NCBI GenBank assembly: GCA_964560225.1
Contig: CAZLLD010000002.1
Coordinates: forward strand, 11,713 to 75,712
Length of the DNA: 64,000 nucleotides
Direction of reading: 5' to 3'
DNA from: an uncultured Bacteroidales bacterium
GTDB lineage: Bacteria > Bacteroidota > Bacteroidia > Bacteroidales > UBA10428
The notes beneath the pieces were generated by a model. That model did no database searches. It worked only from the letters and a program-made list of their open reading frames with translations, and was not told the origin of the DNA. This document shows positions 212-55,501 of the stretch, piece after piece (the first letter of the stretch is position 1; every line of letters starts with the position of its first letter). The translations under genes and the position numbers were made by a program.

Positions 212-1135
212 TTACGGTTGCAAAGGAATGGCCTTTCTGTTAGCGCCCAAATACATTCCGGTGGCCAGCAATACCTCGGCAGTACCGGTACATCCGTTTG
301 AAAATTCAAGAAGTGCCGTGCCCAGCTCCGGCAATTTGTTGTTTTTTACACCTACCGCCCTGATTAGCGCCATACCGGAAACCGGGTTCCGGCGGCAGGA
401 TGGAGTAACTTCAAGTTCCAATAAGCCCTGCTGAATAATCTCGGCATCATGATTATCAACCTCTATGAGCTGACCGCCGCCGGTAATGGTGTAGTCATCG
501 TCCTGCACATTTCCCGGAGTTGTGTTCTGATCCACCGTAATCAGGTAAGCATCCTGTTCAATGGCAACGTATACATCGTTGGGACAAGGATTGTCAAGCC
601 GCGTGTATTCACTTTCTATCTCCCAGGTACTCAGGTTGATCTGAAGTATTGATTCCTGGTCGGGATTCAGGCAGATGTCCTGGCTGGCAAGGGCAACCCT
701 GAGCAGTCCGTGTTCGTCAAGAATAACCGGTATCGTTTTAATGGCCAGCAGGTCAAATGTGGTAGTTTCCGTCTGATAATCAGTAAAAAGAAGGGTCAGA
801 ATACCGCAATTTTCGCTGGCCCACAAGGCGGCAATAGTTATTCCGGATACTTTTTCATTGGACGTGATAAAATCAGATTCACCCTGAAGATCAACCTGCA
901 TCAGGGTAGTGCAAGGAAAACCAGCATTGCTGCGGATTGTGTTGACATTCTGAAAAGTTTGTCCCGATATTGATGCAACAGCAAGCGAAGCCGCATATCC
1001 TGTGTTCACTGAGGTTTGTATGGTCTCTGTCAGGTTTCCGGTATCTGGGTCCCTGAGGTATTCCTTCACCTGCTTGCAGGATGAACCGGTAAGTGTAAAA
1101 AGTAATACCAGCAATATGATGAAAAGTGTTTTCAT
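212..1135 (-). CDS. Hypothetical lipoprotein
   Basis: 307-aa ORF. N-terminal signal with lipobox-like LTGSSC (MKTLFIILLVLLFTLTGSSCKQ). No family recognised. Confidence 0.6.
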   Translation of the reverse strand: MKTLFIILLVLLFTLTGSSCKQVKEYLRDPDTGNLTETIQTSVNTGYAASLAVASISGQTFQNVNTIRSNAGFPCTTLMQVDLQGESDFITSNEKVSGITIAALWASENCGILTLLFTDYQTETTTFDLLAIKTIPVILDEHGLLRVALASQDICLNPDQESILQINLSTWEIESEYTRLDNPCPNDVYVAIEQDAYLITVDQNTTPGNVQDDDYTITGGGQLIEVDNHDAEIIQQGLLELEVTPSCRRNPVSGMALIRAVGVKNNKLPELGTALLEFSNGCTGTAEVLLATGMYLGANRKAIPLQP

Positions 1136-1267
1136 GGTACTGCTTCATTAAACTGGCTTCAGTTTGACAGATAGTTATACTGATTTTATTTGTAAGATGT
1201 TACTATAATCGTTGCTTAATAAATAGAACAAATTGATGGCTTTCGATTATATGTAAATTATTTTGTT

Positions 1268-1275
1268 TATTTTTG
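1268..1275 (+). promoter_or_regulatory. Candidate Bacteroidota -7 box (TAnnTTTG)
   Basis: TATTTTTG lies 34 nt upstream of the cold-shock gene ATG. No clear -33 TTTG. Confidence 0.3.
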
Positions 1276-1308
1276 CAGCCATTATTTTATTTATTATTTA
1301 TTACCATT

Positions 1309-1500
1309 ATGAAAGAAGGAAAAGTAAAATTTTTCAATGAATCAAAAGGATTCGGATTTATTAAAGACAACGACACCAATGAAGAGCATTTTGTGCACGT
1401 CAGCGGACTGATCGACAAAATCAATGAAGATGATGAAGTTACATTTGAACTTCAACAGGGTCGCAAAGGATTGAACGCGGTAAACGTTAAATTGGCATAA
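1309..1500 (+). CDS. Cold-shock protein (CspA family, CSD)
   Basis: MKEGKVKFFNESKGFGFIKDNDTNEEHFVHVSGL contains the RNP1 (KGFGFI) and RNP2-like (FVHVS) motifs. I chose the ATG at 1309 over the track's upstream non-ATG start at 1273. Confidence 0.9.
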   Translation: MKEGKVKFFNESKGFGFIKDNDTNEEHFVHVSGLIDKINEDDEVTFELQQGRKGLNAVNVKLA

Positions 1501-1531
1501 TTGTAAATTCAATATACCAGCATTCAGTTGA

Positions 1532-1557
1532 GGTCGCCAAAATGGCGACCTTTTTTT
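1532..1557 (+). terminator. Rho-independent terminator
   Basis: GGTCGCCA (1532-1539) / TGGCGACC (1543-1550), 3-nt loop, followed by T7. Confidence 0.8.
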
Positions 1558-1579
1558 ATTTTTCAGGATTCAAATTACT

Positions 1580-2299
1580 TCATTTGCTGCCGAATACCTT
1601 TCTGAGAATTTCTGTGGTACGTGCCACAGGATCTTTCCTGATTTTTAGCTCTTCTTTGGCAATCATTACAAATAGTCCCTGAATGGCATTATCAGTAACA
1701 TAAGCAGCCAGATCGGGATTCATCTTTTCAACCAGCGGTATCTTGTTATAGGCAGTGATGAGTTCACTCCAATATTTGGTGGCGTTTACTTTATCCAGCG
1801 AATTCCGGATAACCGGTTTGAATTTTTCATTGAGTTGCAGCGAGGTGGTTTTTTGCAGATACAGGGTGGCAGCATTATCCGGTCCCTTTACAATATTTAT
1901 GGCATCCATGATGGTCATCCCGGTGATGGCCGAAACAAAAATGGATTTGGCTTCTTTTGCAGCATCTTCGGCAGCCCGGTTGATTGATAGAATGGCTTTG
2001 TCAACCTGGTTTCCAAGTCCTACGGCCCGCAACTTGCTTTCAATGTTGGCTGCCTCTGGTGGAAAAGGAATTTTGATTTCAGTATTTTTGAAATATCCGT
2101 CAACAACTGACACAATGCTTACTCCCTCGTTGGTTCCTTTAATTAATGCTTCCCGGATGCCCTGTGCAGCTTCGCCCTCGGTATAGCCACCGGTTGGTGT
2201 ACCCACAGCTTTCGACAGATCCTGCAACAACTGGGTATTTCCGCATGAGCCAACAAGCAGCGAAACAAGCAGGAACTTAATGATAGACGGTCTTTTCAT
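1580..2299 (-). CDS. DUF4197-like lipoprotein
   Basis: Start taken at MKRPSIIKFLLVSLLVGSCGN (signal plus lipobox Cys). The helical ~230-aa body resembles the DUF4197 family from memory. Confidence 0.55.
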   Translation of the reverse strand: MKRPSIIKFLLVSLLVGSCGNTQLLQDLSKAVGTPTGGYTEGEAAQGIREALIKGTNEGVSIVSVVDGYFKNTEIKIPFPPEAANIESKLRAVGLGNQVDKAILSINRAAEDAAKEAKSIFVSAITGMTIMDAINIVKGPDNAATLYLQKTTSLQLNEKFKPVIRNSLDKVNATKYWSELITAYNKIPLVEKMNPDLAAYVTDNAIQGLFVMIAKEELKIRKDPVARTTEILRKVFGSK

Positions 2300-2428
2300 A
2301 TTAATAAGTTTTATTGTTATGGAATGATTCGGGATAAACTTGCTAAACATTACAAAATTTGTAAATATATTCGCTATTCTGAAAGTTAATTTACGAAAAT
2401 TACCAGAAATAATAAACCCTGAATTATC

Positions 2429-4063
2429 ATGAATGAGAAAGTTTCCATCAGTCCAAGCGGAGAAAAATTCCCCTTACCCAAATCTGAAGATTATCAACTT
2501 GAATTCGAACAACTTAAGAAGCGTGTTGAAAAAGAACGAGCTGAAAACCGTGAAATAGTTGTTGTCATGGGACTCGGATTTGTTGGTGCAGTTATGGCTG
2601 CCATCGTTGCCGATACAGTGGATGAAAAAGGCAAACCGGGCAAGTTTGTCATTGGCATGCAGCGGCCAAGCGTGCGAAGTTATTGGAAAATTCCACTACT
2701 CAACCGCGGTGTATCTCCCGTTAAGGCCGAGGATCCTGAAGTTGACCCCATGATTGAACGCTGTGTCAATGTAAAAAAAACACTGATGGCAACCTACACC
2801 TATGATGTGCTGAAACTGGCCGATGTGGTGGTGGTAGACGTGCAGTGTGATTATGTCAAGAAAGACCTGGGGAATGTGAGAACCGGGCAAACTGACATGG
2901 CAGCACTTGAAGCCTCAATCAGTGTTATTGCTGAACATATCCCCGCAAATGCGCTTGTACTGATTGAAACTACTGTTGCTCCTGGAACCACCGAGCAGGT
3001 GGCTTATCCTATTATGAAAAAGGCCTTCAGGCAAAGGGGAATAACAAGCGATCCGCTGCTGGCCCATAGTTATGAACGTGTGATGCCCGGTCGCGATTAT
3101 GTTGCCAGCATCCGTGATTTCTGGCGCGTTTGCAGCGGCATCAACGAAGAAGCCAAAAAACGGGTTGTGAAATTCCTCAACGAGGTGCTCAATACCAAGA
3201 AATTCCCGCTTACGGTGATGGACAGGCCCATCGAATCAGAAACGGCCAAAATCGTAGAGAACAGTTATCGCGCCACTATCCTGGCCTTTCTGGATGAATG
3301 GAGCCTTTATGCTGAACGAAACGGAGTCGACCTGATCAAGGTGATCAAAGCTATTAAAATGCGGCCTACACACAGCAACATCATCTTTCCGGGCCCAGGA
3401 GTGGGTGGGTATTGCCTGCCTAAAGACGGCGGACTGGGGGTTTGGGCTTATAAACACATCCTGGGTTTTGATGATAAGATCTTTAAGATTACCCCAATGG
3501 CCATCGACATCAACGATACCCGTGGAATGCATGTTGGCCAGCTAACCCGGGATGCACTCAGGAATATGGGCCGTCCGGTGGCTTCTGCCGACGTTTTGAT
3601 TCTGGGAGCGGCATATCGCGAAGATGTAGGAGATACCCGTTACAGTGGCTCAGAAATAGTAATCCGGAAGCTCACGGAAATGGGTGCTGAAATCAGGGTG
3701 CATGATCCCTACGTCGATCACTGGTGGGAGTTTGAACAGCAGGATTCCTATCCCGATGTGGGGCAGAGTAAAGCACGCTTCTTCCGCAACCAGGAGAAAT
3801 TAAAAGATCTGCGTATCGAAAAGGATCTGAAAAAAGCACTGAAAGGCGCCGAGGCTGTTGTTTTTGCCGTAAGGCACCAGGAGTACCTGAAGCTGAAACC
3901 CGAAGAAGTGGTGAAATTTATCGGTCAACCTGCAGCCATTATTGATTGCTTTGGCATACTCTCTGATGACGACATCAGGCAGTATTTCCTCATGGGTTGT
4001 GAAGTAAAAGGATTGGGACGCGGCCACATCCAAAGGATTAAAGATGAGATCCGAAAGGCATAA
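2429..4063 (+). CDS. Nucleotide-sugar dehydrogenase (UDP-glucose/GDP-mannose dehydrogenase family), long form
   Basis: Rossmann motif GLGFVGAVMA, catalytic-Cys motif GGYCLPKD, and a C-terminal UDP-binding-domain-like region (LGAAYREDVGDTRYS). 544 aa. Confidence 0.8.
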   Translation: MNEKVSISPSGEKFPLPKSEDYQLEFEQLKKRVEKERAENREIVVVMGLGFVGAVMAAIVADTVDEKGKPGKFVIGMQRPSVRSYWKIPLLNRGVSPVKAEDPEVDPMIERCVNVKKTLMATYTYDVLKLADVVVVDVQCDYVKKDLGNVRTGQTDMAALEASISVIAEHIPANALVLIETTVAPGTTEQVAYPIMKKAFRQRGITSDPLLAHSYERVMPGRDYVASIRDFWRVCSGINEEAKKRVVKFLNEVLNTKKFPLTVMDRPIESETAKIVENSYRATILAFLDEWSLYAERNGVDLIKVIKAIKMRPTHSNIIFPGPGVGGYCLPKDGGLGVWAYKHILGFDDKIFKITPMAIDINDTRGMHVGQLTRDALRNMGRPVASADVLILGAAYREDVGDTRYSGSEIVIRKLTEMGAEIRVHDPYVDHWWEFEQQDSYPDVGQSKARFFRNQEKLKDLRIEKDLKKALKGAEAVVFAVRHQEYLKLKPEEVVKFIGQPAAIIDCFGILSDDDIRQYFLMGCEVKGLGRGHIQRIKDEIRKA

Positions 4064-4163
4064 GAATTAACCGTTTATTGCGTTAATGAATGACTGTATA
4101 CTTAAATTAGTTGTTTTCAGGATGATTTGAATATGACTGATAATCAATACATAAACCCAAATC

Positions 4164-4535
4164 ATGACAACCGTTTATATCTATCTGCGTTCGGTAAAGG
4201 CCGATGGTAAAGAAGCATTGGCCTTGTTTGATTCAAACCGTGGCGGTGCAATCAATAACCTGATAACTGAAGTTCCCGCCGGGACAAGAATTATCTGGCG
4301 ACCCGATTGCTGCAGCGGAATTGAAAACATTGTTTCCATCAGGTCGAAATCGGGCAAAGGCAATGTATTCACCTCGGAACCAAAAAAGAAATTGTTTTGC
4401 CGTGGTTTGGTGCTTCAACTTGAAAAAACTGCCATAGGTGAAGAAGCGTATTTCATTGAGTACCTCTCATCACAGGGTGAAAAAATGAGAATAGATCCTT
4501 ACATCAAAATCAAACCGCCTGAAGGTCAACCATGA
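4164..4535 (+). CDS. Hypothetical small protein
   Basis: 123-aa ORF with no recognisable family. Its stop overlaps the start of the next gene (ATGA at 4532-4535). Confidence 0.5.
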   Translation: MTTVYIYLRSVKADGKEALALFDSNRGGAINNLITEVPAGTRIIWRPDCCSGIENIVSIRSKSGKGNVFTSEPKKKLFCRGLVLQLEKTAIGEEAYFIEYLSSQGEKMRIDPYIKIKPPEGQP

Positions 4536-6436
4536 TCTGTCGCTGCCTGGCTGTTACTCTTATTGCCATCATTATTGCAATAAAACCCCTCTACGCGTGG
4601 CAGGTCCACGTTGTGGATAGCCTTTTGCATATCATTCATCAGGAACCGGAAGATGATTCCGACCGGAAATACGATTTGCTCTGTCAGATTGCTGCAGTTT
4701 CATCAAATGCCGATACCATTGTGAAATACAGCGAACAGGCTGTGATTATGGCAGAAACACTCGGCAAAAGCCAGGCCCGGGCTTTTACCTACAAAGGTAT
4801 CGGGTACCTCAATTCCGGAAGGCTTGCTGCTGCACTGGAATGCTTTCTGAATGCTGCCGGTGAGTATGAAAAATTCAATAATGCAATCGGATTGGCAACG
4901 GCATACACATATGTCTCCCAAACCTACAGCATGCAGGGAAACCATGGCAATGAGCGGTTTTATCTTAAAAAAGCGATTGAAATCTTTACGCGCGAGAAAG
5001 ATACCATTAATCTGGCCTCTGCACTGCATAACCTGGGATATTCAAATTACATTACGGGGCAATACGATACGGCTTTGACGCTGTTTAAAAGAACGGGGGA
5101 AATATACAAGAAACTTGGATATCTGTCTGAATATGCCTATACCATTGGAAATTCGGGATTGGTATATTCGCAAATGGCCACTTTGGATCTGGCTGAAGAC
5201 TACCTGTTAAAGGCTGTTGAAATGCTCCAACTACAGGGTGATGAATATGCTGTTGCCGAATATATGATTGAATATGCCTGGGTTCTTCAACGAAAAGGAA
5301 AACTAGCAGAAGCTCTTCAATACGCCAGAACAGGTTTTCAGAAAGCTACCACCAACCGGATTCTTGAGCTTGAACGTGATGCTGCTTATCGCCTGGCTCA
5401 ATTGTATCAGGCTTCGGTCAGGTTCGACAGTGCATACCATTACCTGTCGCTTTATATCAGTACAAACGACAGCATTAAGAACATCGAGAATGTTCAGAAA
5501 ATGGCTGATCTGAGAACCGGATTTGAAGTGGCCAAAAAGCAGACTGAGGTAGATGTACTCCAGAAGAACAGAATTATTCAACTGATAGTTATCGGAAGTC
5601 TTGCCCTCATCCTCTTGCTGGCAGGTTGGCTTATTGTTATGTATTACAGGAATCTTACAAGATTGAGAAAACTTACCAATGACCTCAGGGAACGCAAAAC
5701 ATTGCTTGAAAACCAAAGCACAGAACTCAGGGAACTTAACCGCATCAAGGACAAATTCTTTTCGGTTGTTTCGCATGACCTCAGAGGACCCATCAGTTCT
5801 ATCGGCGGAATTTCACACATGATCCGGGAAAGTATGGAACATGACAACAAGGCGCTGCTTCATGAAATAACCAGCTATATTGATCAGACTGTTTTTTCTC
5901 TGACCGGACTCCTTGAGAACCTGCTGAACTGGGCACAAAGCCAGCAGGGAAGATTTCCCTACAACGAAACGGAAATCGATACCAAAGAGCTGATCACAGA
6001 GGTAGCGAGGTTATTCTCTACCATTGCCGTACTAAAAGACATCCGCATCAACCTGAAGCTCCGCGACAATTTGTCGATTCCGGGAGACCGCAACAGCATG
6101 ATGATGATTATCCGCAACCTGGTGAGCAATGCTATCAAGTTCACCAAAGCAAATGGCATGATAAGCATTACTACAAGCCTTACAGACGATGGTCTGGCAG
6201 AAATTGTGGTATCTGACAATGGTGTTGGTATTCCGGAAGACAAATTACCCTGGCTGTTTGAATTTAAAGAAAACAAAAGTACATACGGAACCGACAAGGA
6301 AAAAGGGGTTGGACTGGGACTGAGTCTGGTGAATGAGTTTGTAAAAATGAACAAGGGCTCTATCCATGTGAACAGTACAGTAGGTAAAGGAACGAGTTTT
6401 GTTATCCGTTTTGCCTCAGTTCGGGCAGGGAATTAA
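4532..6436 (+). CDS. TPR-repeat sensor histidine kinase
   Basis: N-terminal signal/TM, TPR-like repeats, a TM helix (IIQLIVIGSLALILLLAGWLIVMYY), a coiled coil, the HisKA H-box FFSVVSHDLRGP, and HATPase_c N/G boxes (NLVSNAIKFT, DNGVGIP, GVGLGL). Confidence 0.85.
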   Translation: MICRCLAVTLIAIIIAIKPLYAWQVHVVDSLLHIIHQEPEDDSDRKYDLLCQIAAVSSNADTIVKYSEQAVIMAETLGKSQARAFTYKGIGYLNSGRLAAALECFLNAAGEYEKFNNAIGLATAYTYVSQTYSMQGNHGNERFYLKKAIEIFTREKDTINLASALHNLGYSNYITGQYDTALTLFKRTGEIYKKLGYLSEYAYTIGNSGLVYSQMATLDLAEDYLLKAVEMLQLQGDEYAVAEYMIEYAWVLQRKGKLAEALQYARTGFQKATTNRILELERDAAYRLAQLYQASVRFDSAYHYLSLYISTNDSIKNIENVQKMADLRTGFEVAKKQTEVDVLQKNRIIQLIVIGSLALILLLAGWLIVMYYRNLTRLRKLTNDLRERKTLLENQSTELRELNRIKDKFFSVVSHDLRGPISSIGGISHMIRESMEHDNKALLHEITSYIDQTVFSLTGLLENLLNWAQSQQGRFPYNETEIDTKELITEVARLFSTIAVLKDIRINLKLRDNLSIPGDRNSMMMIIRNLVSNAIKFTKANGMISITTSLTDDGLAEIVVSDNGVGIPEDKLPWLFEFKENKSTYGTDKEKGVGLGLSLVNEFVKMNKGSIHVNSTVGKGTSFVIRFASVRAGN

Positions 6437-6444
6437 CCTGTATC

Positions 6445-8235
6445 TCATTCTTGTTTCAGTTTCAAGATCGAATAACTTTGCCCCGGCATGGTAACCGATA
6501 TTTGTTTCCCGGAACGGTTCAGCTTTAATTCTTTCCCGGCCAGCAGCAAAGTATTTCGGTAATCAATGTTCAGTTCAAAATCAGCATTCACCTCTTTTGC
6601 CGAAGGATTCAGCATTACCAGCACCACATCCTGATCTTTGGCCCTGGCATAGATAAAGGGATAGGTGTTTTCTTTAGCATAAAGCGGAACGAACTCAGCG
6701 TAATCAGCCAGGGCAGGTTCGGAGTGCTTCAGCTGAATCAGTCTGCGTGTTCGGTTCAGCAATGAATTGCTGTCTTTCTCCTGTGCTTCCACATAGGGTG
6801 CATTATCGGCGGTATCAACGGGAAGATACAACTTTTCGGCAGCAGCAGTTGAAAAGCCCAGGTTATCAGCATTGCTCCATTGCATGGGTGTGCGCGCACC
6901 GTTACGGGGCCGGTAGGCACCTTCAACCTGCGGCCAGCTATCAGGCAGCTGTCGCATTCCAATTTCATTGCCATAATAAATAAATGGGGCACCGGGCATG
7001 GTGAGTCCGAATGCATAAATGATTTCCAGGTCATTATCGCTTCTGTTGTTACCCAGCCGGGCATTGTCGTGATTACCCAACGGCAGGCAGATGTATCCTT
7101 TTCCGGTAGTAGGCATATATTGCTCCATGTATTTTTCCAGGAAGTGGGTGATATTGCCTTTACCTTCCTTGTCAAAGAAACTGTTGCCTTCCGAATAGCC
7201 ATTCAAAATGCGCCAGCTTTCTTTCTGAAACAGATCATTGTATCCATCGAACCAATGAAAGAAATCAGCATGGAAACAGCCATCGAGTGCCGAAACCGGA
7301 TTCGACCATTCCGCTACCATAAAGGCATCCGGAAATTCTTCTTTCAGCATGGCCCTGATTTCCTGCCAGAACTTCTTGGTGGCATTTTCATGGGTATTGT
7401 AGAATTGCGGATTGCCTGCAATATTGGCTGTTTTCACCAGGGCCCCGGCCATGTCAGCCCTGAAGCCATCAGCACCCATTTTCATCCAGAAGCGAACCAC
7501 ATTTTTCATTTCCTCACGCATGGCCAGCACATCCGGATGATCTACCGGAAGCTGCCATTTCATGGTAGAGTCGGGCAGGGCAAAGCCATAATTCAAGGCC
7601 GGCTGGCAATAATAAAAGTTCCGCATGTATTGCCCGTTTCGGGTGCCATAGCCCTTGATAAAAGCATCCCGGTATGCAGCAGGAGGATTCAGCCAGAGAT
7701 TGTCGGTCCAGATATACCAGTTGGAATACTTGTTTGACTCCTGTTGCGCCGAGGCTTTAAACCAGGGGTGTTCCATGGAGGTGTAGCTGGCCACAAAATC
7801 GAACAGTATTCGCAATCCTCTTTTATGCGCTTCCTCAAACAGTTTTTTTGCATCCTCATTGGTTCCATATCGGGGAGCCACTTTGTAATAATCGGAAATA
7901 TCATAACCGGCATCACAAAAAGGCGATTCAAAAAATGGGTTGATCCATACCGCATCCACTCCAAGGCTTTTCACGTAACCGAGTTTCTGAATAATTCCTT
8001 TCAGATCACCTATGCCGTCACCGTCTGAATCATAAAATGTTTGGGGATATATCTGGTAGAAGACGGCCTGGTTAACCCAGGCGGGACAATCAGGTATTGT
8101 ATATTTCCCGGTTATCTGGTTGGAAAATAGTGCATTGGTTTCATTTTTAGGATTACTGCATTGGATTACAAGCAGGAACACAACCAGTATTGCGGCTGTT
8201 TGGACCGGGTTTTTACACAAAGCGTTAAAATTCAT
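6445..8235 (-). CDS. Glycoside hydrolase family 13 (alpha-amylase family; alpha-glucosidase/oligo-1,6-glucosidase-like)
   Basis: DSDGDGIGDLKGIIQKLGYVKSLGVDAVWINPFFESP, GADGFRADMA, MVAEWS and LGNHDNAR correspond to GH13 conserved regions. An N-terminal signal is present. Confidence 0.85.
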   Translation of the reverse strand: MNFNALCKNPVQTAAILVVFLLVIQCSNPKNETNALFSNQITGKYTIPDCPAWVNQAVFYQIYPQTFYDSDGDGIGDLKGIIQKLGYVKSLGVDAVWINPFFESPFCDAGYDISDYYKVAPRYGTNEDAKKLFEEAHKRGLRILFDFVASYTSMEHPWFKASAQQESNKYSNWYIWTDNLWLNPPAAYRDAFIKGYGTRNGQYMRNFYYCQPALNYGFALPDSTMKWQLPVDHPDVLAMREEMKNVVRFWMKMGADGFRADMAGALVKTANIAGNPQFYNTHENATKKFWQEIRAMLKEEFPDAFMVAEWSNPVSALDGCFHADFFHWFDGYNDLFQKESWRILNGYSEGNSFFDKEGKGNITHFLEKYMEQYMPTTGKGYICLPLGNHDNARLGNNRSDNDLEIIYAFGLTMPGAPFIYYGNEIGMRQLPDSWPQVEGAYRPRNGARTPMQWSNADNLGFSTAAAEKLYLPVDTADNAPYVEAQEKDSNSLLNRTRRLIQLKHSEPALADYAEFVPLYAKENTYPFIYARAKDQDVVLVMLNPSAKEVNADFELNIDYRNTLLLAGKELKLNRSGKQISVTMPGQSYSILKLKQE

Positions 8236-8354
8236 GATATTAAAATTTGTGGTTTCAGCTAATCAAAAATAGCGAATTATAGAAACCAGATACACCAAAA
8301 AGGATATATCTATGTGCCATTTTTACCCAAAAGACAATCAAAATATTGCTGAAA

Positions 8355-13335: not shown

Positions 13336-14034
13336 TTACCTGTAATGCTGAAAGAGTCCCCCATAGGAAACACTGAAGTTAAATAGCCAACCGGTAAAAT
13401 AGGGTGTATGTGTTACATCTGAGTTATTCATATCATACCAATTCAGACTGGTTACAGAAGGGATAAAGACATTGATGCCGAAGCGCAGGTAATGCTCCAG
13501 CTTTTTCTTTGTTAAAGTCTCACCTTTTGGTAAATTGCCCATTTTTAAGTCTGTGGTAATTCCAAAGCCATAGGTATAACCAGTGCGCATACCTAACAAG
13601 TCATCTCCAACCTGAATATTTTTCGATTCGAATTCACTATAGGAAAGGGATACATTGGGTATGATTCTTAGTATTTCCCTCTCAATGATGGCCAAACCCA
13701 GTGATATGCCGGCAATATCCATTCTGTATTTATTGCCTGCGGGCCATGTGGTTTCTTTATAGTTCAGTTCAGTCTGCAGTTTTCCGCCGCCCAGATTATA
13801 GAAACCGGAAACGTGCAAACGGGAATAACGCAAATCCAGGTTGGTTACAAATAATGCCGTGCTGGTATAATAATCGGCAAAGCCTCCAATAACCAAAGCA
13901 CCACCGGCGCCTGCTGATAACCCCACGCCCCACGATCGTTTCTGTGTGCTGCTATTCTCTGTTGAATTGTTTTGGGCAAAAGCAGATAATCCAAATAAGA
14001 TGAATACTCCGAATGACAGATAGAATTTTTTCAT
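13336..14034 (-). CDS. Outer-membrane beta-barrel (porin-family) protein
   Basis: Signal peptide (MKKFYLSFGVFILFGLSAFAQ), alternating beta-strand pattern, and an aromatic-rich C-terminus (YGGLFQHYR). Confidence 0.6.
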   Translation of the reverse strand: MKKFYLSFGVFILFGLSAFAQNNSTENSSTQKRSWGVGLSAGAGGALVIGGFADYYTSTALFVTNLDLRYSRLHVSGFYNLGGGKLQTELNYKETTWPAGNKYRMDIAGISLGLAIIEREILRIIPNVSLSYSEFESKNIQVGDDLLGMRTGYTYGFGITTDLKMGNLPKGETLTKKKLEHYLRFGINVFIPSVTSLNWYDMNNSDVTHTPYFTGWLFNFSVSYGGLFQHYR

Positions 14035-14139
14035 TTTGAAAGGTTTTGGTTGTAGATAGAATAATGAACTGAAGTAAAAATAAACAAGAATAAGAAGAAT
14101 TCATAAATGATCGAAACCATTTGTGAGGAGTTACCTTTT

Positions 14140-14300
14140 TAATCCCGGTCGGACTCCTTGGAAGTCGCTTCTGATTGCCTGCATTGAGTCATTAAGGCTT
14201 CCTACAGTGGGTAGGTAGTTTCAAACTACGGGTTAAAAAAGCTTAGTAACAAACTAAGCTTAGCGGGGAGCTCCATGAAGCTAAACTTAACTTAGCGGGT
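14140..14300 (-). repeat. Intergenic nested-hairpin element, copy A
   Basis: Shares ordered blocks with 15240-15425: GTAGTTTCAAACTACGGGTTAAAAAAGCTTAGT (30/33 identical to copy B), GGGAGCT, and AGCTAAACTTAACTTAGCGGG. Begins 25 nt after the stop of 14324..15082. Confidence 0.7.
14233..14261 (-). terminator. Rho-independent terminator embedded in repeat copy A
   Basis: Minus strand: AAGCTTAGT-TTGTT-ACTAAGCTT (perfect 9-bp stem) followed by TTTTTT. Confidence 0.6.
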
Positions 14301-14323
14301 TTCAATGCTTTTTTTCTTCATTC

Positions 14324-15082
14324 TTAGTTCCGTAATAAGTTCAAAAAATAACCAATCAGGATAAAGACAAACAAATAGGACATGTACCCTAAAATAATTA
14401 CTGCTAATGACTTCATATAGTTAATCAACTTTTTCTTGCCAAAGAACTGTCCGATCGCCCACATAAGATACAGAAAGAAAACTAACATGACACCAAGTGC
14501 AATAAATCCATTGTTTGTTACTTTCCCACTAACAAAAGCCAATGACAGTATTAATGTGGCTTCACCCAGAATAAAGCAAAGTATAACTATAATTTCATAT
14601 ATATTGTAGTTCCGGACAAAGATCCTGATCCATAGAGCCATGAAAATGCCTATAATCAAATTGGCATATCCGATATTGTTATTCAACCACACTCCAAAAT
14701 CACCGGTGCTGACCTTGCCTTGCAATCCTTGAATTTTATCAACATTGAAGTAGCTGTATTCAATATTTAAAAAATACGAAATCAGGGAAAGAATTATTGA
14801 AGTAAAGATCAGAAAAACAATAGGTTTCACATGCCTGTCCCGGTTCTCGAATAGAAACTCCCGGATTGATTTCCCGGGTCTTATTAAGAATTCTTTTGTC
14901 GTATAAAGAAATCCCCTGTCAAGATTAAAGATTTCCTGAACTTGTTGAGAAAAGTAGCGTCTGTCAATCCTTTCCAATTCTGATCTTTGCTCTGATATTG
15001 GAATAACTTGGTTATCGATATGTTGGTTGCAGTTTTTACCGGCAGTCATTTGTTTGGGTGAATTATAAAGTTCATGATGCAA
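14324..15082 (-). CDS. Multi-pass membrane protein, DUF3667-like
   Basis: FLYTTKEFLIRPGKSIREFL followed by about five TM helices resembles DUF3667 from memory. The usual N-terminal CxxC zinc-ribbon is not evident. Confidence 0.5.
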   Translation of the reverse strand: MHHELYNSPKQMTAGKNCNQHIDNQVIPISEQRSELERIDRRYFSQQVQEIFNLDRGFLYTTKEFLIRPGKSIREFLFENRDRHVKPIVFLIFTSIILSLISYFLNIEYSYFNVDKIQGLQGKVSTGDFGVWLNNNIGYANLIIGIFMALWIRIFVRNYNIYEIIVILCFILGEATLILSLAFVSGKVTNNGFIALGVMLVFFLYLMWAIGQFFGKKKLINYMKSLAVIILGYMSYLFVFILIGYFLNLLRN

Positions 15083-15239
15083 TATTAGTTAACGGACAGC
15101 AGTATGGCTAGTAAGTGATTGCTAATTTTTTACCAATGTTAACTAATTATCCCGGAATGCAAGGTAACTTTAATCCAATTTCAGGCCCCGGCCGGGGTCG
15201 CATGTTTCATTTGGCCATTATTTTCTATACACATCGGAT

Positions 15240-15425
15240 TCCTCCGGAGTCTTCGCCTGTTTAACGGAGTAGGGGACTGAACCTGGTTTTCGAAAGGGGA
15301 GTGGGGTTTGTAGTTACAAACTACAGGTTAATAAAGCTTAGTTGCAACCGATCAAAGGGAGCTCAGCCCTGCCTGGCGGAGCGGCAGCGCAGGCAGGGAA
15401 GCTACACTAAGCTTAGCGGGGACAC
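15240..15425 (-). repeat. Intergenic nested-hairpin element, copy B
   Basis: Same blocks as copy A. AAGCTTAGT (15334-15342) / ACTAAGCTT (15406-15414) enclose a GC-rich 9-bp stem, CCCTGCCTG (15367-15375) / CAGGCAGGG (15390-15398). Begins 63 nt after the stop of 15485..15997. Confidence 0.7.
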
Positions 15426-15484
15426 AATTTACCTTAAACACGCTATTGGGCATTCGTGCTTAATTATATCAATTATACACGAGA

Positions 15485-15997
15485 TTATTTGATTTTTCTC
15501 TTATTTACCTTCTCAGATTCAATAAGAGCCTTTCTTAAGTATGAATATGCTAGAGTAAATATTAACAGACATAACAAAAACACAAAAAAGGATAATAATA
15601 AGTTGCCATGGTTATTCTTTTTTAAAAACATTAATGTTGATATACTTAAAAAGACAAAGGAAATAAATAGGTGCCTATACATAATCATTGGCCTTCTAAT
15701 GCTTAACAAATCTATATCCTTAGCATCCTTAATATCGTTAATAAATTGTTCAAAGTATTTAGGATATAAAAGCCACAAAACTCTTTGAAATGAATAATGA
15801 ATAGATAATCCTAATATAAATGAAATGAAAACTAAAATAATGAAAATCAGAAGAGTATTATTAAAAATAAAATCAACTTTTACATTAAGCGAATTATCCG
15901 AGAAAACCTGATAAAATAGAAAAGCACTTATTAAATATACACTTCCTGGAAGTGTAAAATGAATGACTTCTTTAGACCATTTTGCAAAATCGTCCAT
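15485..15997 (-). CDS. Hypothetical 4-TM membrane protein in an AT-rich island
   Basis: 170-aa ORF with four hydrophobic helices and a basic C-terminus (KVNKRKIK). No family recognised. Strand choice rests on ORF length and TM pattern only. Confidence 0.45.
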   Translation of the reverse strand: MDDFAKWSKEVIHFTLPGSVYLISAFLFYQVFSDNSLNVKVDFIFNNTLLIFIILVFISFILGLSIHYSFQRVLWLLYPKYFEQFINDIKDAKDIDLLSIRRPMIMYRHLFISFVFLSISTLMFLKKNNHGNLLLSFFVFLLCLLIFTLAYSYLRKALIESEKVNKRKIK

Positions 15998-16155
15998 TAT
16001 ATTATTATGTGAAAAGAAATTTTTCCATCAGCATCATGCCCATACAGTTCAAAATACTTACTAAAGATAAGTATATTTTCCTTTTATTAAAAAATTCATC
16101 AAGTTCTCATTCATACTCATTATCGAATTCCTTTGGCGGATCCAGTTTTTCAATA

Positions 16156-16360
16156 AAAATATTTGCTTTAACATAACATCTGCCGATATCGAACTGAGGC
16201 AAAGCCTCAATCCAATAAAATGATTATTTAAATTGATTCTACTCGAAAATTTGCTTTAACATAAAATCTGCCGTTATCGGACTCCGCTGACGCTTCGTCG
16301 CGATAACTGATTTTATGTTAAGTATCCGGTTGACTCCGCTTGGGCTTCGTCAACCGGCTA
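16156..16360 (-). repeat. Tandem direct repeat plus two hairpins with a shared GAC-GAA-GC/GC-GGA-GUC core
   Basis: TTTGCTTTAACATAA.ATCTGCCG.TATCG.ACT occurs at 16262 and 16250+ (31/34 identical, ~88-90-nt period). Nested hairpin 16258-16319. Second hairpin 16326-16357. Confidence 0.7.
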
Positions 16361-16435
16361 CACGCAAATTTTCTGCGGCCGAAATTTTCTTTTCTAATGT
16401 CCTATAATTAATATTATGTTAAATAGAATTATCAA

Positions 16436-16467
16436 AGAAAAAGGGAAACGGTTTCGCTTCCCTTTTT
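16436..16467 (-). terminator. Rho-independent terminator (T-runs on both strands)
   Basis: Minus strand: GGGAAGCG-AAAC-CGTTTCCC then TTTTTC, 13 nt after the stop of 16475..17785. Confidence 0.75.
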
Positions 16468-16474
16468 GCGGTTA

Positions 16475-17785
16475 TTAGATTTCGCCAATGCGTTTGATAA
16501 CACTTTCGCGTTCGCTGTCCATTTTCAACCGGTAATAAACCGTTTTCAATGTTTCCAGGGCGCTTTTCTTTTCGTTGGGATCATTACTCGAAGTGCTTGC
16601 TTTTTCCATGTAAGGAATTACCTTTTTCAAAATTTCGTCTCCTTCTTTCTGCTTCTTTTCAAATTCATTGTTGTCCATAATTTTGGAGGCTTCCTCATAG
16701 ATTTTTACAGCCTGGTTGTAATACAATACTGCCAGGTTGTAATTGGCGTTGAAGAAATTCGGATTCTTTTCAAGACAACTCATATAGGCCTTTTCAGCAT
16801 CTTCACTGCGATCCAGCTTTTCATACAGCGTACCTTCAGTGAAATAATAGGAAATGTTTTCAGGATCACCTTCTTTTGCTTTATTGATCATCTCCAGAGC
16901 CTGAGGAACCTGTTTTGAATCAATATAGTAGTTGATCATTTCAATCATGATCGACTGGTCTTCGGGATATTTTGTAAATCCTTCGCGGATTACCTCAACA
17001 CCCTTAGCTGTGTCACCGCAGGCAAAAAAAGCCTGTTTGCGGAACACATAAAGAAGTGGATCTTTATAGTTATGTGAGGCAGTTTCTTCAAATAATTTGC
17101 TGGCTGTAGCAAAATCCTTATTCTCATATGCAGCGCGACCTGCAAAATACATGATGATGGTATCAACCCTGCCTTTCATTACCGGCAGCTTGTTCAGATC
17201 AATTATGCTGATAAAATTCTTTTGTGATGCCGCAAAATCACCTTTCTCATAAGCATTAATGGCTACATTCTGGTAAGCACTCTTCAGTGTTTCAACAACA
17301 GATTTGACATCGGCGTCGGCTTTGCCATCGGAATTCAGTTTGATGGCTTCATCAAGAGCCTTTTTTGCTTCAGGAAGCGGATTGGGATGTATTTTATCGG
17401 TCTCAATCCACTCATCGAGTTGACCGTTCCTGAAAATAAGGTTTACCCGCTCATAAATGTATGCTTGCATCTGGTCATTGCCATCCGTGTAAGTCTTTAT
17501 TTCCTTAGGCTCTTTTAGGAACAACTTAGCCTGTTCTGGTGGCATGCCTCTGGTTAACAAGTCGTTGTGAACGTTAAAAGCCTCAAGAAATACCTTTGCA
17601 CGAGAAGTCCAAGTTTTGGCCTTGGTATTCTTTTTTGCATTCTGGATATCTGCATCCGATTTTTCAATTTTCTTCTGCAACCCTGTATAGTTCAAAATGG
17701 TTGTAGATTCACCCGGTGCCTGAGCATTCAGGTTAACTCCAGCATAAAGAAAGATCGAAATAAGAAACAAAGTGATACGCTTCAT
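16475..17785 (-). CDS. Tetratricopeptide-repeat protein, secreted
   Basis: Signal peptide (MKRITLFLISIFLYAGVNLNAQA) and multiple TPR-like A/Y/F-periodic helices (e.g. YNLAVLYYNQAVKIYEEA). Confidence 0.75.
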   Translation of the reverse strand: MKRITLFLISIFLYAGVNLNAQAPGESTTILNYTGLQKKIEKSDADIQNAKKNTKAKTWTSRAKVFLEAFNVHNDLLTRGMPPEQAKLFLKEPKEIKTYTDGNDQMQAYIYERVNLIFRNGQLDEWIETDKIHPNPLPEAKKALDEAIKLNSDGKADADVKSVVETLKSAYQNVAINAYEKGDFAASQKNFISIIDLNKLPVMKGRVDTIIMYFAGRAAYENKDFATASKLFEETASHNYKDPLLYVFRKQAFFACGDTAKGVEVIREGFTKYPEDQSIMIEMINYYIDSKQVPQALEMINKAKEGDPENISYYFTEGTLYEKLDRSEDAEKAYMSCLEKNPNFFNANYNLAVLYYNQAVKIYEEASKIMDNNEFEKKQKEGDEILKKVIPYMEKASTSSNDPNEKKSALETLKTVYYRLKMDSERESVIKRIGEI

Positions 17786-29083: not shown

Positions 29084-29156
29084 AGCGGCAAACGGGTCTC
29101 GAACCCGCGACCTTGAGCTTGGGAAGCTCACGCTCTACCAACTGAGCTACTGCCGC
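29084..29156 (-). tRNA. tRNA-Gly (anticodon CCC)
   Basis: Minus strand: GCGGCAGTAGCTCAGTTGGTAGAGCGTGAGCTTCCCAAGCTCAAGGTCGCGGGTTCGAGACCCGTTTGCCGCT. Cloverleaf checked by hand. Anticodon loop TTCCCAA, discriminator U. Confidence 0.9.
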
Positions 29157-29160
29157 ATTG

Positions 29161-29232
29161 AGCCTCTCAGGGGATTTGAACCCCCGACCTGCGGTTTACG
29201 AAACCGCTGCTCTACCGCTGAGCTAAAGAGGC
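29161..29232 (-). tRNA. tRNA-Thr (anticodon CGT)
   Basis: Minus strand: GCCTCTTTAGCTCAGCGGTAGAGCAGCGGTTTCGTAAACCGCAGGTCGGGGGTTCAAATCCCCTGAGAGGCT. Anticodon loop TTCGTAA. Confidence 0.9.
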
Positions 29233-44837: not shown

Positions 44838-44910
44838 TCGGTCCGGAGGGGCTCGAACCCTCGACCCCATGATTAAGAGTCACGTGCTCTACCAGCTGAG
44901 CTACGGACCG
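44838..44910 (-). tRNA. tRNA-Lys (anticodon CTT)
   Basis: Minus strand: CGGTCCGTAGCTCAGCTGGTAGAGCACGTGACTCTTAATCATGGGGTCGAGGGTTCGAGCCCCTCCGGACCGA. Anticodon loop CTCTTAA. Confidence 0.9.
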
Positions 44911-55108: not shown

Positions 55109-55501
55109 AAAAACAGCAAACCTGTAAGCCGGATTCTGTTTCCTGGTTCCTTGCGGAGCCCGGATCTCCATCATTTGTCTGATCGATCTACCCCCCGGTA
55201 TCAGGCGAGCAACCCTTGGCACCGGTATACGTGATCTTTCAACCCGCAAGACGGACAGCTTATGATGTCACCACCATAACTGGCAGGCTCTTACCCTGCC
55301 TTCTCACCCTTGCTCCGGTTTGGAATGATGCAGATTTTACCAGGTAAAACCCGCAGATCCCATGCCGGGGCGGTCATTCTCTTCTCCGAACCTATGCCCT
55401 CACGAACATCTTCCATTTCGGAAGTGCGGTGCTCTGCGTTGTCCGGACTTTCCTCCCCGCTCCGGAGAACCGGAACGGAGCGATGAAGCGGCTTGCTGCT
55501 T
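55109..55501 (-). ncRNA. rnpB: RNase P RNA (bacterial type A)
   Basis: Minus strand carries GGAGGAAAGTCCGGAC (CR-I), GGTAAGAGCCTGCC, CCGGAGCAAGG and ACAGAATCCGGCTTA (CR-V). P1 pairs AGCAGCAAGCC (55490-55500) with GGTTTGCTGTT (55112-55122). A U-run follows. Confidence 0.9.

Follow-up and report, generated by a model that had tools for sequence, protein, structure and literature searches.

Organisation of the locus

The stretch of DNA described here (the window) comprises 64,000 nucleotides of contig CAZLLD010000002.1 from an uncultured Bacteroidales bacterium, and the subject of this report is a non-coding, hairpin-rich repeat within it, termed element E, which occurs there in two copies, A and B. 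Following a gene for a TPR protein, the locus contains the chromosomal dif site, a gene for a 170-aa protein, a gene for a DUF3667 membrane protein and a gene for a 232-aa orphan of predicted outer-membrane type, with copy B trailing the first of these genes and copy A the second (Table 1). Copies A and B are paralogues of one another and belong to a modular repeat that is specific to the lineage, and the locus can be described with high confidence as a cassette array beside dif that is punctuated by E. All copies of E are read below on the gene-sense strand, which is the minus strand of the window.

Syntenic contigs of relatives (given as L numbers) were fetched via the conserved upstream TPR gene (16475-17785), and the sample consists of metagenome-assembled genomes and metagenome contigs of one narrow clade. 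The order rpmB...ftsY...clpB-gyrA-TPR is kept in the genomes whose TPR protein is 81-85% identical. Element E was mapped by blastn, module mapping and an nhmmer profile over the 64-kb window and about 90 kb of flanking DNA of the relatives, and recombinases and transposases were sought by Pfam scans of the window's non-overlapped open reading frames (ORFs) of at least 150 aa and of the called genes around the relatives' arrays.

Table 1. Features of the dif-adjacent array (window positions unless a relative is named; hp, hairpin; M, module).
Feature	Position	Strand	Remarks
Element E, copy B	15186-15421	-	nhmmer 83 bits, E-value 3e-24
Copy B, 5' end CCCCGCTAAGCTTAG	15400-15421	-	
Copy B, long hairpin hp2, outer stem	15334-15342/15406-15414	-	
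Copy B, apical GC hairpin, stem CCCTGCCTG/CAGGCAGGG	15367-15398	-	
Copy B, 'ins' module	15344-15366	-	T-rich linker after hp2
Copy B, hairpin hp1	15310-15324	-	
Copy B, M1	15266-15306	-	
Copy B, M3a	15219-15251	-	
Copy B, M3b hairpin	15186-15211	-	
Element E, copy A	14127-14300	-	repeat/module mapping, profile, folding
Copy A, partial 5' unit	14279-14299	-	
Copy A, complete short-type core, hp2	14239-14261	-	then TTTTTT
Copy A, hp1	14215-14229	-	M1 deleted
Copy A, M2 fragment	14171-14206	-	
Copy A, M3a-like segment	about 14148-14170	-	
Copy A, M4	14127-14147	-	
Cassette ORF 1, 170-aa hydrophobic protein	15485-15997	-	no family hit; about 26% GC; called in four Logan contigs
Cassette 2, DUF3667 membrane protein, 241 aa from ATG 15049, with 57-nt leader	14324-15106	-	PF12412, E-value 1e-11
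Distal boundary of array, 232-aa predicted outer-membrane-type protein with conserved leader	13336-14126	-	same boundary in two relatives
Chromosomal dif, ATGTCCTATAA-TTAATA-TTATGTTAAAT	16397-16424	+	28 bp; proximal anchor of array
Y-shaped three-way inverted-repeat structure	16245-16373	-	between dif and first cassette, about 25 nt beyond dif
dif2, ACTTAACATAA-AATCAG-TTATCGCGACG	16296-16323		arm of Y structure, paired to inverted XerD-arm copy 16254-16281
Y structure in relatives	L008 11381-11522; L010 3058-3200; L011 11405-11545		reduced forms in L017, L042, L043
Inverted XerD-arm-like repeat, CTTTAACATAA at 16166	16161-16193	+	last conserved sequence before first cassette
Strong hairpin terminator of TPR gene (16475-17785)	16443-16470	-	divides core genome from dif and array
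CCTGCCTG...CAGGCAGG hairpins	window 15367-15398; L010 about 3320-3340, 5097-5118, 7222-7243; L043 9714-9743		

The two copies in the window

The original prediction described two homologous nested-hairpin elements, and their relationship is clear from direct comparison. The intervals 14215-14247 and 15310-15342 are identical at 30/33 positions and both fit the pattern GTAGTTWCAAACTACRGGTTAAWAAAGCTTAGT with no mismatch; a third match was not found in the 64 kb even at three mismatches, and 100 shuffles gave an expectation of 0.00. A repeat finder carried the homology to 44 nt at 84% identity (14209-14252 versus 15304-15347). Furthermore, the 17-mer ACTAAGCTTAGCGGGGA is exact in both copies (at 14253 and 15406), and CTTAGCGGG occurs three times in the window, always at these elements, against 0.16 expected. 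The two arms of the 9-bp inverted repeat AAGCTTAGT/ACTAAGCTT stand 5 nt apart in copy A (repeat at 14239-14261) and 63 nt apart in copy B (repeat at 15334-15414), as first described, and the extra GC-rich stem reported for copy B was recovered at 15367-15398. The GACTCC/GGAGTC segments noted in both copies (at about 14148-14170 and 15237-15255) correspond to module M3a. The elements lie just past the stops of minus-strand ORFs, at measured distances of 24 nt (ORF 14324) and 63 nt (ORF 15485), and the products of these ORFs show no BLASTP similarity, in agreement with the earlier impression that the two genes are not obviously homologous. The homologous unit is larger than was first described, extending over about 14127-14300 and about 15186-15421; the elements and core repeats of the original prediction stood, and the dif context and up to about 300 further nt of conserved modules had been missed.

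Anatomy of element E

The 5' edge of E is sharp at (C)CCCGCTAAGCTTAG in seven of ten copies. Next comes the hairpin hp2 (AAGCTTAGT...ACTAAGCTT), which occurs in a short type with a loop of 5-7 nt (e.g., in copy A) and a long type (e.g., in copy B) whose loop holds a 40-70-nt insertion with its own GC hairpin. A linker of 8-10 nt, T-rich and otherwise variable, leads to hp1 (GTAGTTTGNAACTAC), which is followed by ATACCCC. Short-type hp2 and hp1 have in common a 13-bp palindrome, TAGTT-NNN-AACTA, at a spacing of 28-29 bp. Downstream of these hairpins, the modules M1 (CACTCCCCTTTCGAAAACC...TCCCCTACTCC), M2, M3a, M3b (GCGACCCCGGCCGGGGTCG) and M4 combine variably between copies. Copy B is made up of M1-M3a-M3b, and copy A has no M1 and continues as M2(part)-M3a'-M4; the fullest copy (L010 6183-6560) holds all modules, and E can be as long as about 380 nt. 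In several copies the 5' part is partially duplicated in tandem. In L008 (11816-11925), two units form a clean 57-nt tandem E-E with zero DNA between them, four TAGTTTGTAACTA-type palindromes at 28-29-bp spacing and CCCC at both unit boundaries, an arrangement that may represent an 'empty cassette' or the scar of a deletion.

Two further features were observed within these modules. Small GC-rich hairpins of the form CCTGCCTG...CAGGCAGG are inserted in the loops of E hairpins and in one dif-proximal repeat (Table 1), and behave as a very small secondary insertion element restricted to this locus would. On the plus strand of the window, M1 (15266-15306) contains the G-rich octamers GGAGTAGGGGA... 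and GGGGAGTGGGG, which point toward dif. The G-rich motif GAGTAGGGG of M1 may be read as resembling the FtsK-orienting polar sequences (KOPS), in that GAGTAGGG can be set beside the KOPS and SpoIIIE recognition sequences (SRS), GGGNAGGG and GAGAAGGG; by this analogy, such octamers could matter for tolerating insertions beside dif.

Distribution in related genomes

Element E was found solely in the interval bounded by dif and the distal genes. This applies to the window and to six related genomes, and all copies are oriented in the sense of the genes. The search of related genomes that the original prediction had proposed, made by blastn and profile, yielded up to five copies per locus: two in the window, two in L008 (in tandem), five in L010, one in L011, one in L017, one with a degenerate copy in L041, and three in L043. 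L017, whose TPR protein is 71% identical, has its single copy without a cassette, and E was not found in the relatives at 61-62% TPR identity (L018, L042). Across the mapped DNA (the 64-kb window and the relatives' flanks), no copy was found elsewhere. Most copies trail different, unrelated ORFs and about half sit 0-95 nt past the stop of one, with different genes between the copies, which bears out the cassette-like layout first proposed; the original prediction had asked whether hits always sit 3' of short ORFs, and about six copies have no ORF directly upstream. Short-read assemblies break inside E, in the dif-proximal repeats or in dif itself (L001-L005, L013, L041, L043; in the window at about 14129 and 16214-16283), and these contig ends are consistent with graph breaks induced by repeats or strain variation.

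Several collections outside this clade were also searched. An exact-pattern scan of GTDB representatives returned chance matches in Saccharibacteria nusG coding sequences only, with a pattern that spanned the variable linker and made a poor test, and an M1-pattern scan of JGI metagenomes returned chance matches inside atpH coding sequences only. Pattern scans of viral contigs and blastn against plasmids and phages recovered no E, and nothing of relevance turned up when the full-text literature was searched for E sequences. Rfam gave no match on E at gathering thresholds or at permissive thresholds to an E-value of 10, apart from meaningless stray hits (group II D5 at 15.7 bits, and snoR9). Other identities were considered for E and rejected. 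A tRNA-like origin was negative in ARAGORN, and an antisense ORF (MGFVVTNYRLIK...) present in copy B and L008 is interrupted in copy A by an in-frame stop. Because the Bacteroidetes -7 motif TAnnTTTG is absent within E, it is not an obvious promoter module.

Gene cassettes

Between the conserved flanks, the gene content is unlike in every genome compared. L010 encodes proteins of 129, 157, 249, 146 (reverse strand) and 659 aa, the last arabinofuranosidase-like, followed by the 232-aa orphan. L008 has a truncated copy of the 129-aa gene and then the orphan, and L011 has an ORF-less spacer and then a hydrolase. BLASTP comparison among the cassette proteins detected no mutual similarity. The orphan itself (ORF 13336-14034) is clade-restricted, with four homologues among 5.8 billion clustered proteins. 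Cassette DNA has a GC content of 26-36% against 45-50% in the flanks, and the TAnnTTTG motif was not found upstream of most cassette ORFs.

The DUF3667 cassette recurs in L043, at 92% amino acid and about 93% DNA identity, between different flanks. Homology between the window and L043 starts abruptly at CATACTGCTG (15106), 57 nt before the ATG, and ends at the stop codon; upstream of 15106 the two sequences have no similarity at all. The upstream neighbour of this gene is an operon of ubiquitin-like (Ubl), E1, JAB, E2 and AAA genes in L043 and the 170-aa gene in the window. The presence of the same gene in the same dif-adjacent array with different neighbours is evidence of cassette movement. 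L043 as a whole runs from within dif through a reduced Y hairpin, two ORF-less copies of E, the six-gene operon and the DUF3667 gene to the start of a long-type E at the contig end. Its operon (1029-8309) encodes a 72-aa protein, a ThiF-type E1, a JAB protein, an E2-like protein, a 140-aa protein and a 1348-aa double-AAA ATPase, with PADLOC matches to the E1-E2 and JAB components, and forms a ubiquitin-like conjugation system, a kind that has been linked to defence against phages.

The dif site and its surroundings

On the sense strand, dif reads ATTTAACATAA-TATTAA-TTATAGGACAT and follows directly after the TPR terminator. Compared with the E. coli dif in the same orientation (ATTTAACATAA-TATACA-TTATGCGCACC), the XerD arm is identical at 11/11 positions and the XerC arm retains its TTAT. 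Across seven genomes, reaching down to 61% TPR identity, the 28-mer is preserved with no more than two substitutions, which all fall in the XerC arm, and its flanks diverge; L043 begins one base inside dif and holds all but the first base. GC skew changes sign at the locus, from positive on its left to predominantly negative on its right. The array starts about 130-400 nt from dif on its XerC-arm side, downstream of gyrA and the TPR gene. Proteobacteria-like dif sites have been predicted in Bacteroidetes (PMC3025954), and dif-directed integration of integrase-less microviruses has been proposed for Bacteroidales (PMC3091885). A 21-mer of the dif core, ATTTAACATAATATTAATTAT, occurs in 22 viral contigs (L019-L040, from IMG/VR), and in two of these (L024, L034) it forms perfect inverted pairs with a spacing of about 85-115 nt. 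The finding suggests Xer-exploiting viruses that use this type of dif, in the manner of integrative mobile elements that exploit Xer (IMEXs).

Between dif and the first cassette lies the Y-shaped structure, which folds with z = -8.1 on both strands and comprises 46 pairs, two of them compensatory among four genomes, with a further compensated stem in L042. Its dif2 arm, with a bulged centre, is reminiscent of the forked hairpin of CTX-phi attP(+). In every genome, the unique DNA of the first cassette starts just past an XerD-arm-like TTATGTTAAAG repeat. Both Xer arms are present only at dif and dif2, with none in the E copies or at the distal end of the array, and E was accordingly rejected as a dif-like site, having no XerC/XerD core; a single copy has a linker that is XerD-arm-like at 9/11 positions. 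By eye, M2-M3 of E appears colinear with the dif2 hairpin (AATCAG...CGAAG...GGAGTCCGAT), and homology is not claimed given that Smith-Waterman scores against shuffles gave z <= 2.4.

Conservation and folding

Copies of E are 76-93% identical, whether orthologous or paralogous; copy B and L010c, a copy in L010, reach 93% despite different flanking genes. The dif-proximal non-coding region is 88-92% identical, compared with 62-75% at the third-codon positions of the TPR gene. Since E is more conserved than these positions, the comparison of sequences indicates that it is either under selection or kept homogeneous by exchange, and is not a decaying scar. Folded as single strands, the cores of both copies are far more stable than shuffles (z of -4.2 to -4.5 for copy A and -2.8 to -3.9 for copy B), in line with the hairpins first reported. 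A T-rich tract follows hp2 in roughly 10 of 12 copies read. The sole double change in the covariation set comes from a non-homologous row, and one more compensatory pair was seen by eye in L043. Wobble changes counted by hand comprise five of the G-T type and three of the A-C type, a difference that is not significant and supports no inference of strand.

Proposed role and alternative explanations

With slightly better than even confidence, E is read here as the junction repeat of a dif-adjacent cassette array, combining the role of terminator or insulator with that of a substrate for cassette gain, loss and shuffling. From the sequence, the 5' core (a 9-10-bp hp2 with its T-rich tract, backed by hp1 on the same palindrome) would end or insulate the transcript of each cassette; no simpler reading of where it lies and how it is built suggests itself. 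The shared E sequences would then serve as the substrate on which cassettes are inserted, deleted and reshuffled. Candidate routes would be recombination between E copies, Campbell-type insertion of E-bearing circles, or the action of a site-specific recombinase close to dif; an integron integrase working on attC would have no part in this. The sharp 5' edge, the tandem E-E and the single address point to a directed process, and recombination between copies, homologous or illegitimate, is suggested by the mosaic modules and the ragged 3' side. Given dif, dif2 and the forked hairpin, it is an attractive idea that the Xer machinery or single-stranded intermediates take part. A bolder extension, which we consider unlikely, would make E and the Y-shaped dif2 hairpin a hitherto undescribed, integrase-less cassette capture platform at dif and a functional analogue of the integron; in this extension, accessory and defence genes would be acquired, stacked and shuffled there by host Xer or by a recombinase recognising the TAGTT-NNN-AACTA palindromes.

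Several observations weigh against the junction-repeat reading. About six of roughly 15 copies have no ORF directly upstream, and at least one multi-gene cassette, the L043 operon, has no E after it. The 3' edge of E is not fixed, with modules deleted or truncated variably, and this raggedness is more in keeping with homologous or illegitimate recombination than with a precise, site-specific exchange. Covariation, which the original prediction had named as a check on RNA structure, was not significant: 91.9% of cells are paired and 38-42 of 500 shuffles do as well, in a set whose 10-13 near-identical copies afford low power. Broken pairs are as common in the E helices as wobble pairs, and a terminator consensus scan left the E hairpins uncalled, their stems being AT-rich with three G-C pairs in nine. 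No phage integrase or other recombinase or transposase domain was found in the scanned ORFs of the window, as the earlier reading had held, or in the called genes around the relatives' arrays. Finally, with a sample of metagenome-assembled genomes and metagenome contigs from one narrow clade, E may also exist elsewhere in the genome.

Among the alternatives, the plainest is that the copies are ordinary intrinsic terminators, duplicated together with the DNA around them in a plastic, terminus-proximal region, with no role in mobility. The T-rich tract after hp2 in most copies (e.g., AAGCTTAGTTTGTTACTAAGCTTTTTTAACC in copy A), the position of about half of the copies 0-95 nt past a stop codon, and the one compensatory and several G-U changes tolerated on the sense strand agree with this, and the suggestion of a family of structured terminators is plausible for the 5' hairpin with its T-rich tract, although the terminator scan made no call at E. 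This explanation leaves unaccounted for the 100-300 nt of conserved M1-M4, the abrupt start of E at its 5' edge, its second palindrome, the copies without an ORF (L011, L017, L043), the L008 tandem, the conservation above synonymous sites, and the confinement to a single locus, given that terminators of other kinds serve other genes of the window; we regard it as unlikely, and the finding holds more interest than a duplicated terminator would. Accretion of the IMEX type, in which host XerC/XerD integrate cassettes at dif and E is an attachment or accessory region or a decayed attachment site, is less likely again. Its appeal lies in the closeness of the array to a conserved dif on the XerC-arm side, in the forked hairpin formed by dif2 and inverted XerD-arm repeats with its resemblance to CTX-phi attP(+), in the constant start of first-cassette DNA just past TTATGTTAAAG, in the lack of an integrase among the scanned ORFs, in the viral contigs that carry the dif 21-mer (two with inverted pairs), and in the earlier proposal of such integration for integrase-less Bacteroidales elements (PMC3091885). 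It is opposed by the lack of a recognisable XerC/XerD core in E beyond the one 9/11 linker, by the absence of dif-like sites at internal cassettes or the distal end of the array, and by the insignificant M2-M3 alignment with the dif2 hairpin.

It is improbable that E is a selfish small palindromic repeat lodged in a permissive, gene-poor region, in the manner of repetitive extragenic palindromes and bacterial interspersed mosaic elements (REP/BIME) or of miniature inverted-repeat transposable elements (MITEs). No copy lies outside the locus in the 64 kb and roughly 90 kb of flanks, the GTDB, JGI and viral pattern scans and the plasmid and phage blastn yielded no E, all copies share one orientation, and neither a REP-associated tyrosine transposase (RAYT) nor another transposase gene was found in the window. 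These points are set against a modular make-up like that of pneumococcal BOX and enterobacterial BIME, the insertion of CCTGCCTG...CAGGCAGG GC-rich hairpins in hairpin loops, the breaks of short-read assemblies inside E-type sequences, the hairpin pair near the L010 copies that scores 36.7 bits against Acido-Lenti-1 (gathering score 37), and the GTAG at the start of hp1, a REP-like feature. More improbable still is a cis-acting structured RNA (one that stabilises or regulates from the 3'-untranslated region) or a gene for a small RNA that recurs behind each cassette: conservation above neutral, stable folding and the position downstream of ORFs would suit it, but Rfam has no match, covariation is not significant, the palindromes are conserved in sequence and not in pairing, several copies are ORF-less and no conserved promoter lies upstream. 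The attC-like cassette site that the original prediction had entertained, which would make the locus a cluster of attC sites without integron integrases (CALIN), is close to refuted. The array layout is integron-like, with co-oriented, mostly short ORFs, many lacking the Bacteroidetes -7 motif, an imperfect palindromic element of 55-110 nt, its ends conserved and its centre variable, after each ORF, and cassette content that varies between strains; it has no attC boxes or fold, and no IntI is encoded in the window. As already suspected from the lack of convincing boxes, RYYYAAC...GTTRRRY pairs 50-150 nt apart number zero on either strand of the window (13900-16500) and of the L008, L010 and L011 arrays, the nearest analogue being GCTTAGT/ACTAAGC, which has no AAC/GTT triplets. 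The E hairpin (23-81 nt) suits the attC range of 57-141 nt in length but is of the wrong geometry, with a basal stem of 9-10 perfect pairs, a 16-nt one-sided bulge, a 4-bp AGCT stem and no L-box pair or extrahelical bases; E extends hundreds of nt past it, and integrons are very rare in Bacteroidetes (PMC9024848).

Relation to known systems

The closest systems are integron/CALIN arrays, which have the same layout and different sites, and IMEX arrays at dif, which have the same address and different junctions. Like integrons (e.g., the VCR super-integrons of Vibrio), the E locus consists of one-directional, unrelated, mostly small and apparently promoter-less ORFs, many of them trailed by a related imperfect-palindromic repeat that is conserved at its ends and variable in its centre; the content varies between close relatives, and repeats within a locus are alike. 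However, E is without R''/R' boxes, attC fold or IntI, is longer and modular (up to about 380 nt) with no fixed 3' boundary, and its locus is anchored at dif instead of attI/intI. The IMEX arrays of Vibrio cholerae (CTX-phi/RS1/TLC/VGJ-phi) and the proposed dif-integrated microviruses of Bacteroidales (PMC3091885) likewise place integrase-less tandem DNA beside dif, and their dif-proximal end has additional dif-like sites together with an inverted pair that can fold into a forked hairpin. Their units are phage or satellite genomes, whereas those described here are single genes or small operons, and the E separators have no XerC/XerD core, nor does the array have a distal dif-like site. BOX, REP/BIME and the Correia elements of Neisseria resemble E in being non-coding and hairpin-rich, with variable sub-modules, at gene 3' ends, and as possible terminators or stabilisers; they are dispersed genome-wide in tens to hundreds of copies and both orientations, in contrast to the one locus and one orientation in which E was seen. 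The pdif modules of Acinetobacter are also discrete accessory-gene modules, in an Xer/dif context, that are thought to be mobile without having their own recombinase, but they are bounded by inverted 28-bp XerC/D sites and found mostly on plasmids, and E lacks Xer cores.

To our knowledge, integrons and IMEXs are the two known ways to stack foreign genes at a fixed address without an integrase of their own, and Xer-exploiting elements in Bacteroidetes have only been conjectured. The present locus joins an integron-like layout with an IMEX-like address beside dif, and the defining sites of either system were not found in it. If the repeats are recombination substrates, they would represent a new way for bacteria of a major phylum, both host-associated and environmental, to acquire accessory genes, and a tractable one, with a platform of only a few hundred bases. 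A conservative reading still gives a defined dif for the lineage, a conserved structured element beside it and a terminus-proximal hotspot of cassettes.

Other structured sequences

Within one cassette leader of L010 (4089-4133), a hairpin pair scored 36.7 bits against the Rfam family Acido-Lenti-1, just under its gathering score of 37 (E-value 1e-5), and is not present in the window; this motif is associated with mobile elements. Elsewhere in the window, Rfam identified an RNase P RNA of class A (171.6 bits, 55109-55499), and three tRNA genes lie at 29084-29232 and 44838-44910; these are housekeeping RNAs unrelated to E.

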